Source of the DNA: Zestosphaera tikiterensis
GTDB lineage: Archaea > Thermoproteota > Thermoprotei_A > Sulfolobales > NBVN01
Direction: 5' to 3'
DNA: 32,000 nt
NCBI GenBank assembly: GCA_003056265.1
Contig: NBVN01000002.1
Coordinates: 150,001 to 182,000, forward strand
Shown here: piece after piece, positions 14,094 to 15,994 of the stretch
Numbering within the stretch: the first letter of the stretch is position 1
Layout of the letters: each line of letters begins with the position of its first letter
Notes under the pieces: model-generated
What the model saw: the letters and a program-made list of their open reading frames with translations, nothing else
Database searches by the model: none
What the model was told of the DNA's origin: nothing
Made by a program: the position numbers and the translations under genes

Positions 14094-14100
14094 CTGCTGA

Positions 14101-14250
14101 CGGCCCCTGCTGTTTATGGCAGGGGTTCTCCCCCTAGGGCTTCCATCACCTCTCTGGAGCCCCTCACCGGGAGTGCATCACCCATCAGCTCCCGCCGTCA
14201 ACTCCGGGAAGGTGTGGGTCTCATCCCAAGCTACGGTTGCCCACACCCAA
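14101..14250. other. G+C-rich hairpin-rich element X. It may be a structured RNA or a repeat element; strand and family are unresolved.
   Basis: About 65% G+C over 14101-14220 by my count. Hairpins: 14104-14110/14119-14125 (7 bp), 14168-14173/14189-14194 (6 bp), 14211-14218/14240-14247 (8 bp). Palindrome CCCTAGGG at 14132-14139. No tRNA T-loop is present. Confidence 0.5.
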
Positions 14251-14274
14251 CCCAATATCTATTAAGTTAGAGAA

Positions 14275-14308
14275 AGCTTATAAACATTTACCCCGCCTTA
14301 AAAGGCGG
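14275..14308 (+). promoter_or_regulatory. Promoter P1: TATA block AGCTTATAAAC plus inverted repeat CCGCCTT-AA-AAGGCGG over the expected transcription start
   Basis: TATA at 14278-14284 and palindrome at 14293-14308. SD AGGTGA at 14319-14324 lies 5 nt before GTG 14330. The block is near-identically duplicated at 15202-15238. Confidence 0.6.
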
Positions 14309-14329
14309 AGCCTCAAACAGGTGATTTAG

Positions 14330-15046
14330 GTGTTTAGATTTGGTGTTGAAGGTTTCGATGAGTTATTAGGTGATGTTTTAAGTCCTGGCACTTTATTTGT
14401 TATCGCGGGGTATCCGGGGTCTGGTAAGACCGTATTCGCTGTTTCTACGTGTTACGCTAACGCTGTTAGAGGGCATCGATGCGCTTACGTTACTTTTAAC
14501 GAGGATAGGGTTAAGCTTTATAGGTTTATGAAGAATTTTAACATGGATTTAGAGAAGCTTGAGTCTGAAGGGTTGTTTAGCTTCCGTAAGTTGCCGGTTG
14601 TTAACGATCCTGAGATAGTTATGAATGAGTTAAGTAATGTAATGAATTCAGTTAAACCTGAGGTTTTAGTCATTGATAGCGTAACGCCTTTAATTAAGGC
14701 TATGAAAGACCGCTTAGAGAGTAGGGCAGTTCTTCAAAACTTTTTCTACGAGTTAGCAACCTTCTCTAAGGGTTTGGTAATTCTCATAGTTGAGAAACCC
14801 CTATACGGTGAACTTGAAGATTTAGGGGATATCGAATTCGTTGCTGACGTAATCGTGGAATTCACGTATAACATAACAGCAGGCCTTCTAAGTAGGTTTT
14901 TAAAAGTAGTTAAAGCAAGGAGTAAACACCTAACGATGGTTGAACTACCCTTCGCTATAACATCAGGCAAGGGAACTGAAATGACCCTCTCCCCGCCTTT
15001 AAAAGCGGGGTTTCACTGCTGGGTCTTAAGCGATACCCCTCCTTAA
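14330..15046 (+). CDS. Single-domain KaiC/RadC-like RecA-superfamily ATPase (Walker A and B intact)
   Basis: The N-terminus GVEGFDELLG is followed by Walker A GYPGSGKT and Walker B EVLVIDSV. The C-terminal RFLKVVKARSKH...FAITSGKG is typical of COG0467 proteins. The last ~18 aa are encoded by repeat element Y. Confidence 0.8.
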   Translation: MFRFGVEGFDELLGDVLSPGTLFVIAGYPGSGKTVFAVSTCYANAVRGHRCAYVTFNEDRVKLYRFMKNFNMDLEKLESEGLFSFRKLPVVNDPEIVMNELSNVMNSVKPEVLVIDSVTPLIKAMKDRLESRAVLQNFFYELATFSKGLVILIVEKPLYGELEDLGDIEFVADVIVEFTYNITAGLLSRFLKVVKARSKHLTMVELPFAITSGKGTEMTLSPPLKAGFHCWVLSDTPP

Positions 15047-15199
15047 GGGGGTTACGGGACACCTCCATCAATCATCGACCTCTAAGGGCCTCAAACTTCA
15101 TGTGGGAGGCATTGTATGGGTTATGTGCTTTAGTTGATATTGTTTGAGGTTTGCCTCCCACACACATTAAACATCATCACCAAAAATAAACTAAGAACA
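14991..15199. other. Element Y, a diverged paralog of element X. It overlaps the 3' end of the first ATPase gene.
   Basis: Hairpin 14991-14996/15005-15010, palindromic CCCCTCCTTAAGGGGG at 15036-15051, CCATCA at 15065-15070, and a 10-bp stem 15101-15110/15153-15162. These occur in the same order as in X. Confidence 0.5.
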
Positions 15200-15201
15200 A
15201 C

Positions 15202-15238
15202 AGCTTATAAACCTTCATCCCCGCCTTAAAAGACAAGG
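15202..15238 (+). promoter_or_regulatory. Promoter P2: duplicate of P1 with a degenerate right palindrome arm
   Basis: AGCTTATAAAC at 15202-15212 and CCCCGCCTTAAAAG at 15219-15232 are both identical to P1. The ATG is at 15251. Confidence 0.55.
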
Positions 15239-15250
15239 CTTTCAGTTGTA

Positions 15251-15994
15251 ATGCCGTATGAACGTGTTGGAAGGTTCGAAGAGGTAAGACTTAATGTTGA
15301 GTATGACTTACCGTGTAAACCGCTTAAGAAGTATATAAACCACCTACATCCAGGCCATATAGTCTACGTTGAATACCCAGCCGAGGCTAGGATAAGCGAT
15401 AACGTAATCGCTACCCTACTCAACTTCACGATTAAACACAACCTTAAAACGCTTTTAATAGCTTACGAACAACCCCCGAGGATGTTAAGTGAGTTAATGT
15501 CCCTTCAACTTAAGGGAGTAGCTGAAGCCAACGAAAGAATAGATGAACTTCTTAAGAAAAACCTGCTTATAGTATCACTCAACCCTGCTTCAATGAGTTT
15601 TTCGGAATTGATGGTTAACGAATCAAAACTTCTGAAGGAGTTTAAGCCCGATGTAGTGGTGTTCGGCGGCGTTGACAAGGTGTGGATGATACATACGTCG
15701 AAAGAATTTGAAACTTTACAAAGGAGTTTACTACTTAATCAACTCTTAATGCTGAGGAGGCTCGGCATATTAACTATTAGGTTAGGGTCAAGTATAAACG
15801 AAGAGTTAAGTAACTTCTTCTCATCATTAGCTGATGTAGTAGTTAAGATAGGCTACGTTAGGGACGGTAACACGTATAAACCTGAAGCATATATTTGGAG
15901 GAAGGGACGGGATCCTAAAGTACTTACTTCGGATCAGGTAGTGAGTTGTTATGAAGAAGTTTTTGAAGGTTTAAAACACGCTAACCTTACTTAA
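15251..15994 (+). CDS. KaiC-like domain protein with degenerate nucleotide-binding motifs (probable pseudo-ATPase partner)
   Basis: 247 aa, the same length class and layout as the upstream ATPase. The Walker A position reads GHIVYVEYPAEARIS and the Walker B position reads DVVVFGGVD. Confidence 0.55.
   Translation: MPYERVGRFEEVRLNVEYDLPCKPLKKYINHLHPGHIVYVEYPAEARISDNVIATLLNFTIKHNLKTLLIAYEQPPRMLSELMSLQLKGVAEANERIDELLKKNLLIVSLNPASMSFSELMVNESKLLKEFKPDVVVFGGVDKVWMIHTSKEFETLQRSLLLNQLLMLRRLGILTIRLGSSINEELSNFFSSLADVVVKIGYVRDGNTYKPEAYIWRKGRDPKVLTSDQVVSCYEEVFEGLKHANLT

Follow-up and report, generated by a model that had tools for sequence, protein, structure and literature searches.

Two probable protein-less TnpB transposon relics carrying a structured minus-strand RNA behind the uL23 gene of Zestosphaera tikiterensis

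The ribosomal-protein gene uL23 of the archaeon Zestosphaera tikiterensis is followed by two blocks that resemble each other, each with hairpins and a TATA box and each standing before a protein gene. What are these blocks, and do they belong to the genes behind them? The blocks, A (14094-14330) and B (14980-15256), lie in a 32,000-nt stretch of contig NBVN01000002.1 (positions 150,001 to 182,000 of the forward strand, assembly GCA_003056265.1), which is called the window here; coordinates refer to it unless a related contig (L001 and the like) is named. An earlier note read the blocks as parts of two tandem paralogous modules, each composed of a structured element, a promoter and a KaiC/RadC-like ATPase gene. 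The analysis described here points with good confidence to another origin. Blocks A and B are probably relics of TnpB transposons, insertion sequences (ISs) of an IS200/IS605-like kind that lack protein genes, comparable to palindrome-associated transposable elements (PATEs) and miniature inverted-repeat transposable elements (MITEs), and they carry a structured RNA on the minus strand. That this RNA is the omega (guide) RNA of the element is a further step, which seems fairly likely.

The insertion site behind uL23

Related contigs obtained by an exact look-up of the uL23 protein reveal the site in different states. Contig L001 is 98.6% identical to window positions 10116-14100 and diverges after 14100. 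It holds an empty site, where uL2 starts 14 nt past uL23 (...cttatttagctg/gtgagttgagATG, the slash marking a junction here and below, with uL2 on the right), and the spacing of uL23 and uL2 is the same in L005 and L006. In L004, a 1.5-kb insertion lies between the same two genes, with a left junction (...ttagctg/CTGACGG) as in block A. The insertion opens with the sequence rich in guanine and cytosine (G+C) that is found in block A (...agctg/CTGACGGCCCCTGC...). It continues with a TTTATAAA box, an open reading frame (ORF) of 48 aa and another of 373 aa, and it closes at ...CTTATAAACATTTACTCCGCCATAAATAGCGAAGCTAGGTATGG/GGTGAGTTGAGATG (uL2). The L001 and L004 pair thus reads ...agctg/element/gtgagttgag, with no target duplication and an ambiguity of at most 1 nt. 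An insertion beside a one-sided motif with no target-site duplication is what IS200/IS605 elements give, and it is found here in one direct pair of an empty and a filled site. Block A corresponds to the left 160 nt of the L004 insertion fused at TTATAAA to its last ~40 nt, and it appears to be the TnpB element minus its genes.

The ends of the family can be described from the full-length copies. The RNA-side end starts (G)CTGRCGG, and the flanks on that side are diverse. At the other end, the tnpB stop codon is followed by a hairpin (CCCCGCCC-TAAA-GGGCGAGG), CTTCCA, a few nucleotides and then (G/T)TGA. This last motif follows the end in 21 of 35 motif-matched rows, ~27 of which are apparently genuine ends, and comparison of L004 with L001 assigns GGTGAG to the flank. 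The order along the minus strand is 5'-TCAC(C)/end hairpin ... TATA ... RNA ... hairpin-AGCC-GUCAG/-3'. A hairpin of the form CCUCGCC-loop-GGCGGGG-AG stands at both ends, on one strand and with the same U·G position, as in IS200/IS605 elements. In those elements, the target motif precedes the left end on its 5' side, the top strand carries similar subterminal hairpins, and cleavage at the right end occurs ~10 nt 3' of the hairpin. GGTGA is the core of the Shine-Dalgarno sequence, and insertions directly upstream of a start codon are found in L004, L011, L013 and L052 and for block A of the window.

The 373-aa protein of the full-length element is the second part of the argument. In an alignment of 21 homologues, D179, E304 and D355 are invariant, as is a CxxC...CxxC ribbon (C324/C327/C345/C348). 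A profile search against PDB sequences gave a weak "Transposase" match alone (9j09, E = 0.003), so a fold search was needed. By Foldseek, the AlphaFold model (predicted local distance difference test, pLDDT, 82) matches, over its whole length, AsCas12f (E = 4e-11), ISFba1 TnpB (E = 5.8e-10), the TnpB-omegaRNA-target DNA complex 8h1j (E = 1.9e-8) and ISDra2 TnpB 8exa (E = 1.7e-6). Template modeling (TM) scores for the TnpB/Cas12f matches are ~0.5-0.6. The protein therefore has the three features that mark TnpB and Cas12f, namely the RuvC D-E-D triad, a zinc ribbon (TNB) before the last Asp and a whole-length structural match, and on the strength of the model it is predicted to be a very divergent nuclease of the TnpB/Cas12f fold with an intact catalytic triad. 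Homologues occur in Vulcanisaeta, in metagenome-assembled genomes (MAGs) of Ignisphaera and Desulfurococcaceae, and in many hot-spring metagenomes, so that the family is widespread among hot-spring Thermoproteota. Scans with the TnpB alignment gave 4 loci in a genome collection and 80 in metagenomes, which were used for the analysis. Between the promoter and tnpB there is a conserved small ORF of 48-49 aa (...RARLSSHGGGRLIIYIP...), which runs past the tnpB start in a different frame (L004:871-1017, L007:1524-1673 and L008:2374-2523); it matches no Pfam or NCBIfam family.

A structured RNA opposite tnpB

Block A has a G+C content of 0.64-0.65 across 14100-14249, against 0.33-0.52 in the neighboring genes, and block B is lower at 0.46-0.52. 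Both have a hairpin close to the left end, CCCCTGC-tgtttatg-GCAGGGG at 14104-14125 in A and CCCCGC-ctttaaaa-GCGGGG at 14991-15010 in B. In block A, CCCTAGGG is located at 14132-14139. A longer hairpin follows in each block, formed by GGTGTGGG and CCCACACC at 14211-14218 and 14240-14247 in A and by TGTGGGAGGCA and TGCCTCCCACA at 15101-15111 and 15152-15162 in B. Identical copies of AGCTTATAAAC and CCCCGCCTTAAAAG are present in both, and CCCCGCCTTAAAAG has 4 matches where 0.35 are expected. The two blocks (14094-14330 and 14980-15256) align colinearly. A covariance model built from block A and relatives (R1; 172 positions, 47 pairs) aligns block B over its full length (14977-15172, minus strand) with 18.4 bits and E = 3e-4 in the 32-kb window, and the colinearity exceeds chance. 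Folded as a single sequence, the minus strand of block A has a minimum free energy of -76.1 kcal/mol (z = -3.27), and the plus strand is about equally stable (z = -3.36), so the strand cannot be assigned by single-sequence folding. Block B folds more weakly (z = -1.95 on the minus strand, -0.89 on the plus strand).

Comparison across the family is far more informative than the folding of one sequence. In all four genomic loci, the G+C-rich element precedes the small ORF and tnpB. A search with R1 at E < 1e-5 gives 79 full-length copies in 77 loci, all of them upstream of tnpB and opposite to it in strand, with 187-209 nt between the inner end of the RNA and the tnpB match. These copies include clades at only 32-36% TnpB identity. 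Weak partial matches of R1 also fall on the other-end hairpin (L014 2601-2624 and L015 2266-2289). The G+C content is 65% in the RNA, 46% in the body of tnpB and 47% at its 3' end; this lack of enrichment at the 3' end means that there is no sign of a canonical guide RNA there.

Pair statistics were taken from 72 distinct copies in an alignment fitted to the R1 model. Standard pairs fill 94.8% of cells, against 83.0% in shuffles and 39-48% when the partners are slid by 1-3 columns, and two-sided (compensatory) changes are present in 36 of the 47 pairs, against 18.6 in shuffles. None of 500 shuffles reached the observed pairing values. The terminal hairpin (helix 9) is paired in 99.2% of cells and shows compensatory change in five of its six pairs. 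One pair of the closing helix illustrates the pattern, being A-U in the window, G·U in L004, L007 and L008, and G-C in L010. Because this alignment was fitted to the model, the comparison was repeated with MAFFT and RNAalifold on 22 diverse copies, which independently recovered the same helices, with compensatory changes in 17 of 40 pairs. Read in the minus sense, the alignment holds 335 G·U cells and 49 A·C cells, an excess that assigns the RNA to the minus strand.

The consensus starts with a 5' hairpin and continues with a long-range helix, GCUGRCGGC pairing with GCCGYCAGC, that closes a three-way domain. A terminal hairpin and an invariant tail (...CGUCAG(C)) complete it. In the 72 distinct copies, the closing helix and the terminal hairpin end with this tail at the transposon boundary. 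The conserved unpaired motifs are CUGA-n4-UGAUG, GUGAGGGG and AGAA. The first of these, extended to CUGA-n4-UGAUG(C), lies beside helix 5, is at least 90% conserved and has an order like that of a K-loop, as far as a sequence pattern alone can tell.

In 61 distinct copies, the TATA box starts 23-29 nt (mode 26) before R1 position 1. It is centered in a 28-bp palindrome, GAGCAAAAAGCTTATAAGCTTTTTGCTC, with A-rich arms on either side that resemble B recognition elements (BREs). The arrangement suggests a single bidirectional and perfectly palindromic BRE-TATA-BRE promoter that would serve the RNA in one direction and the small ORF and tnpB in the other. In blocks A and B, the arm on the tnpB side was lost by deletion, and the TATA boxes now face the ATPase gene and the next ORF, probably serving as their promoters.

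Much of what the earlier note had observed is borne out by these results. The hairpins and repeats it listed, and the 65% G+C of block A, can be read directly from the sequence; its view of the two blocks as homologous and colinear agrees with the R1 alignment of block B; and the retention of pairing while stems change, proposed from two copies, is seen in the 72 relatives and in the MAFFT/RNAalifold repeat. The bracketing hairpins, described as a MITE-like trait, prove to be of one type at the two transposon ends. The TATA core was rightly called palindromic. Of the two strands considered, the alternative of minus-strand noncoding RNAs is supported by the G·U excess, which contradicts a plus-strand leader or 3' structure, and the UGAUG K-turn-like motifs noted on the minus strand are among the conserved ones. 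What did not survive is the proposed unit of RNA, promoter and ATPase, as the RNA, promoter and hairpin occur in dozens of unrelated TnpB-IS contexts.

No Rfam family reaches its threshold in the blocks. At gathering thresholds, Rfam finds only two tRNAs in the window, and between 14050 and 15300 Rfam and ARAGORN give no gathering-level C/D, H/ACA, RNase P, signal recognition particle (SRP) or tRNA match, the best C/D matches having E values of 6 or more. The identities tRNA, RNase P, SRP, 5S, C/D and H/ACA were accordingly dropped, in keeping with the remark that no T-loop, 5S, RNase P or SRP signature is present. The search that had been recommended with Infernal and Rfam gave no clean match, and it did give a sub-threshold one. 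The best, on the minus strand, is HgcC (RF00062) at 14972-15092 in block B (24.7 bits, E = 0.003), and further minus-strand HgcC matches are found in L016 (25.2 bits), L020 (21.5 bits) and L013 (21.3 bits). Block A has no HgcC match over its RNA and a 12.9-bit partial match at the other-end hairpin (14291-14310). The similarity consists of the terminal hairpin and the tail, ...GGGGAGCCGUCAGC in the family and ...GGGGAGGAGGUCAGc in the HgcC consensus.

The guide-RNA reading and its rivals

The reading of the RNA as a guide RNA draws on its position, the geometry of the boundary, the HgcC-like features and the absence of any alternative RNA for this TnpB. Like the omega RNAs (also called reRNAs) of OMEGA systems in IS200/IS605 and IS1341-type elements, it is a structured scaffold of ~150 nt at one end of the element. 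With its 3' end directly at the boundary, it could use the flank as guide, and the target-adjacent motif (TAM) is borne by the opposite end. Its partner here has the TnpB/Cas12f fold with the D-E-D triad intact. The canonical ones share the strand of tnpB, overlap its 3' end and are processed out of the tnpB mRNA; the RNA here is upstream and divergent, ~190 nt from the tnpB start, with a small ORF between them. By analogy with the IS200/IS605 layout, the RNA would stand at the usual place of a guide RNA, at the right end and reading outwards, and it is tnpB that would be inverted.

IS608 and ISDra2 provide a second comparison. They also insert beside a 4-5-nt motif with no duplication and have similar imperfect hairpins near both ends on one strand. 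In IS608, the left cleavage site is farther from its hairpin, on the 5' side, than the right one, which is ~10 nt 3' of its hairpin; the distances between boundary and hairpin here are 13-24 nt and 9 nt. They differ from the present elements in that no Y1 transposase gene was seen in the loci here, where no dedicated search for one was made, and in the inversion of tnpB relative to the ends.

HgcC provides a third comparison. Both are G+C-rich RNAs of AT-rich hyperthermophiles with a link to IS1341-type tnpB, and both have a 3' part in which a CCCCGCC-UUUA-GGCGGGG hairpin is followed by AG..GUCAG, as well as a GAUGA motif. The 5' two-thirds of the structure here has no match in HgcC. In Thermococcus kodakarensis, HgcC RNAs are transcribed from inside IS1341-type tnpB genes (PMC4247193), starting within tnpB in the sense direction, unlike the RNA here; one P. 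furiosus HgcC is reported in the same paper as antisense to a transposase gene (PMC4247193). The HgcC motif is common to the sense-overlapping RNAs at the 3' end of haloarchaeal tnpB genes and to an RNA from a PATE, an element in which the left and right ends are fused (PMC4615843). Such sense-overlapping tnpB RNAs are now termed omega RNAs (PMC12558985), and in surveys and in Sulfolobus data the omega RNA is located downstream of tnpB or overlaps the 3' end of the gene (PMC10691335, PMC12817955).

Protein-less PATEs of the IS200/IS605 group are known in Halobacterium (PMC4615843) and Geobacillus (10.1101/2023.03.14.532601). They often encode omega RNAs, which a TnpB from elsewhere must use in trans (10.1101/2023.03.14.532601). 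Blocks A and B share with them two ends with similar subterminal hairpins, the lack of a protein gene and of a target duplication, and the retention of the RNA gene. They differ in that the deletion fused two TTATAAA sequences, so that the promoter faces a neighboring host gene, and in that the RNA has its own promoter and is not cut from a tnpB transcript. The claim that no described system has this architecture was therefore too strong, given that guide-RNA-encoding PATEs have been described; the part for which no description was found is the orientation of the RNA relative to tnpB. In the literature searched, no description was found of a TnpB guide RNA that is upstream and antisense or divergent and separately promoted, or of L7Ae with TnpB. 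The kind of element is known; the divergent arrangement of RNA and tnpB, the palindromic promoter and the GGTGA target appear to be new.

If the RNA is a guide, a mechanism can be proposed. The RNA would start ~25 nt downstream of the TATA box and, having no internal T-run terminator, would continue past the boundary, with the flank supplying the guide; for block A this flank would be the antisense of the 3' end of uL23. With TnpB supplied in trans, the RNA would direct cleavage of empty sites flanked by TCAC, and the copy would be restored by recombination. Full-length elements would use a single palindromic promoter for the RNA in one direction and for the small ORF and tnpB in the other. 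In the deleted copies, the same TATA box would face a host gene, first the ATPase gene and then the next ORF, and would probably be its promoter now.

Several observations weigh against the readings favored here and are best considered together. The family models for TnpB do not accept the 373-aa protein: it scores 26.1 bits with Pfam Cas12f1-like_TNB (PF07282), just short of the cut-off of 26.3, and 18.1 bits with NCBIfam guided_TnpB (NF040570), for the zinc-ribbon part only, against a cut-off of 100. No tnpB is present in the 32-kb window, and no Y1 tnpA was seen in the fetched loci, which were not searched for it specifically, nor were the host genomes. The exact boundaries and the assignment of GTGA to the flank depend on a single pair of empty and filled sites plus conservation. 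Block A has the same left flank as L004, uL23, and a different right flank, the ATPase gene in place of uL2; this would be due either to recombination between two copies or to an assembly misjoin at the repeat. The signal of block B is weak (18 bits, z = -1.95), and this copy may be dead. The HgcC matches reach ~25 bits at best and fall far short of the 50 bits set as the gathering score. Omega RNAs normally overlap the 3' end of tnpB in its own orientation, and the RNA here is found upstream of the gene and on the other strand. Lastly, a structure in top-strand single-stranded DNA (ssDNA) would also tolerate G·T pairs, and the strand asymmetry alone is no proof of RNA.

This last point leads to the alternative that deserves the most attention, in which the minus-strand RNA is real and has another role, be it an antisense or regulatory RNA that controls the transposon or transcription reading into it, a structural RNA bound by L7Ae, or mainly an ssDNA structure for a transposase. 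Its position and orientation are unlike those of all characterized TnpB guide RNAs; the other end has the same type of hairpin as the terminal one, which would fit DNA hairpins recognized by a transposase; and the conserved K-loop-like CUGA-n4-UGAUG suggests L7Ae binding. A domain of 47 pairs in several helices, 36 of them with compensatory change, nevertheless goes far beyond what an end hairpin needs, and it comes with its own conserved TATA box at a fixed distance. The structure has no internal terminator and stops precisely at the boundary, its 3' tail (...GGGGAGCCGUCAGC) is HgcC-like, and this TnpB has no other G+C-rich RNA. On balance, a role other than that of a guide is considered unlikely.

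The remaining explanations keep the blocks on the host side, and both can be regarded as extremely improbable. The original proposal of two host modules duplicated together, each made up of a KaiC-like ATPase gene, a promoter and a structured leader or 3' element on the plus strand, draws on the colinear blocks, one before each gene, on their near-identical TATA box and CCCCGCCTTAAAAG block, and on a TATA box that probably drives the downstream genes now. It must then explain why the block is found in 79 other places with unrelated flanks and a TnpB gene, why an empty site exists, and why the ratio of G·U to A·C, 335:49, speaks against the plus strand. The two proteins have no similarity to each other (E = 1.2), and the last 21 codons of the first gene, past the KaiC domain, lie within block B. 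A host C/D-box or H/ACA guide small RNA (sRNA), or another known K-turn RNA, on the minus strand would account for the conserved UGAUG and CUGA motifs and for weak Rfam C/D matches (sR58, 13.9 bits, E = 6). Such an RNA would be tied to TnpB and transposon ends in every case, it reaches the gathering score of no Rfam family and shows no ACA box arrangement, and at ~160 nt with a three-way domain it is unlike the archaeal C/D sRNAs of 50-70 nt.

With the transposon and guide-RNA readings retained, a more specific model can be put forward as a tentative proposal that stands somewhat short of an even chance. This would be an "inverted" OMEGA system with an independent guide-RNA gene divergent from tnpB, one palindromic promoter, maybe an L7Ae-type K-loop in the scaffold, targeting of TCAC(C) as the complement of the Shine-Dalgarno sequence, and donation of promoters by protein-less copies. 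Since TCAC(C) complements the Shine-Dalgarno core GGTGA, copies would land just upstream of genes, and this preference for a ribosome-binding site would make the elements natural promoter donors. A system of this kind would have no conflict between producing the tnpB mRNA and cutting the guide RNA from it.

The implications differ with the reading. The family (at least 79 loci in Vulcanisaeta, Ignisphaera, Desulfurococcaceae and hot-spring metagenomes) pairs a divergent TnpB with an opposite-strand RNA that has its own promoter. If the RNA is a guide, the expression of guide RNA and nuclease can be uncoupled in OMEGA systems, a thermostable and compact (373 aa) nuclease-RNA pair with a defined scaffold would be at hand, and the functionally unresolved archaeal HgcC high-GC RNAs would be tied more firmly to transposon guide RNAs. 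For the window, an apparent module of RNA, promoter and ATPase would become two transposon relics that can be annotated, one of which would have changed the C terminus of a KaiC-like ATPase and split an operon, with the other at the break in the ribosomal-protein operon, where uL23 stands without uL2.

Elements A and B and their surroundings

Element A (14097-14319, no strand) is annotated as a protein-less, PATE/MITE-like derivative of a TnpB IS, with its RNA end joined to the opposite end at TTATAAA. The left boundary is uncertain by 1 nt (G14096), and the right end is taken from homology to L004 and the ends of the family. The RNA gene (~160 nt, 14097-14258, minus strand) scores 170.3 bits with R1 and ends ...GCCGUCAG at the transposon boundary; its 5' hairpin, the long-range helix closing the three-way domain and the terminal hairpin form a candidate omega (guide) RNA scaffold. 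The terminal hairpin (14104-14125, minus strand) is at the same time the subterminal hairpin of the RNA-side end and lies 9 nt from the boundary. The palindromic TATA box TTATAAA is at 14278-14284 and is unstranded, a putative promoter of RNA A to the left and, since the deletion, of the ATPase gene to the right. The other-end subterminal hairpin (14291-14308, minus strand) reads CCGCC-ttttaa-GGCGGGG in the minus sense and is of the type of the RNA terminal hairpin. The GGTGA flank (14320-14324, plus strand) is both the target motif, TCACC on the minus strand and TAM-like, and the Shine-Dalgarno sequence of the ATPase gene.

Element B is annotated at 14981-15248, with boundaries that are approximate and set by analogy, as a second, diverged or decayed protein-less copy from a related subfamily. 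Its degenerate RNA gene (14981-15182, minus strand) keeps helix 1 (15101-15111 with 15152-15162) and the terminal hairpin (14991-15010), and it has a GUGAUGA motif close to the 5' end. The TATA box (15205-15211) lies 46 nt before the ATG of the next ORF. A degenerate end hairpin follows (CCCCGCCTTAAAAGACAAGG, 15219-15238, minus strand), its 3' arm mutated, and the right end, GGCTTTCAGTTG/TAA, corresponds to GGCTTCCAGTTG/TGA, the end seen in the family. Blocks A and B are ~90% identical in the promoter and end hairpin and far apart in the RNA; gene conversion, selection on the promoter or a chimeric origin of B could produce this pattern. The left 80 nt of element B are 78% identical to L030:218-295 and to L031 and L033. 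A short B-type copy is found at L030:218-385 (also in L031 and L033), ~330 nt outside a full-length element, and in L030 its terminal and second hairpins are like those of block B and precede an end-type hairpin, CCCCGCCATGAATGGCGAGG. A B-type subfamily therefore seems to exist elsewhere, and different subfamilies appear to cluster together.

The ATPase genes of the module hypothesis are flanking host bystanders. The first (14330-15046, plus strand, 238 aa) starts with GTG at 14330, with GGTGA ahead of it, and its product matches Pfam KaiC at residues 4-217 of 238 (1e-34). An exact look-up of the protein gave no match, and a homologue search gave none at E 1e-20 or better. The last 21 codons (from 14981) come out of element B, past the KaiC domain. 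Excising 14981-15248 gives ...ACT GAA/TAATG, with a stop after residue 217 that overlaps the next ATG. Because the excision restores a stop at the end of the KaiC domain, element B is placed at the TAATG stop/start overlap of a two-gene operon, an insertion point that would follow from the reading frame and the Pfam domain end. The insertion appears to have split the operon, added 21 residues to the ATPase and given the second gene a TATA box 46 nt upstream. That second gene, a host gene and not part of the element, is a 247-aa ORF (15251-15994, plus strand) with its ATG at 15251, which was presumably coupled in translation to the ATPase gene in the original arrangement. Pfam gives no match for it, and the best other match is a weak one to ArlH (E = 0.0045). 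The two downstream proteins had been called paralogous ATPases; compared with each other by BLASTP they give E = 1.2, with no demonstrable paralogy, and the KaiC match is confined to the first.

Contig L091, which bears the 247-aa ORF, begins inside element B. Along with L002 and L003, it is one of the short-read contigs that each end within block A or B, as expected because the blocks are repeats. The uL23 site is polymorphic in the population, being found empty, with a full-length element, and with a deleted element and another right flank. Upstream of it are uL3 (11985-13004, plus strand), whose protein matches PUA33208.1 exactly and places the window in Z. tikiterensis (Desulfurococcaceae) or a very close relative, and uL4 (13021-13833, plus strand), followed by uL23 (13830-14093, plus strand), whose 3' flank is the insertion site and which in relatives is separated from uL2 by the 14 nt mentioned above. 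The gene uL2, next after uL23 in L001, L004, L005 and L006, is absent from the whole window, and the ribosomal-protein operon is interrupted exactly at transposon copy A.

Among the relatives, two loci hold two RNA copies each (L076:1136-1305 and 1758-1929; L020:4-182 and 1493-1666). The second copy in L076 is a 240-bp piece within tnpB that repeats the RNA, the promoter and 34 nt from the zinc-ribbon region of that gene. As a partial internal duplication, this locus was rejected as a clean nested insertion and was not used for boundaries. L020 has one copy at either end of the contig, 1489 nt apart, an arrangement that suggests a tandem or circular assembly. A tRNA gene and a 5S rRNA gene are ~1-2 kb away from the element in Vulcanisaeta sp. 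JCM 14467 (L010:4489-4563 and 5429-5549).

Two further features of the window concern its gene content. Adjoining the two host genes downstream is a minus-strand gene at 16008-17108 for a fusion protein that combines a ferritin/rubrerythrin-like domain with a Linocin_M18 encapsulin shell domain (Pfam 2.5e-42). Upstream, ~6.7 kb at 3362-10115 are absent from the otherwise 98-99% identical L001, in which positions 1-173 correspond to window 3189-3361 and positions from 303 to the window from 10116. The segment ends at a tRNA-Leu gene (10115-10201, minus strand) and codes for a small NOV_C-like protein, a transporter of the major facilitator superfamily (MFS) and a 1012-aa protein that has no Pfam match. 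An integrated element, or an indel at the tRNA gene, may explain the segment.

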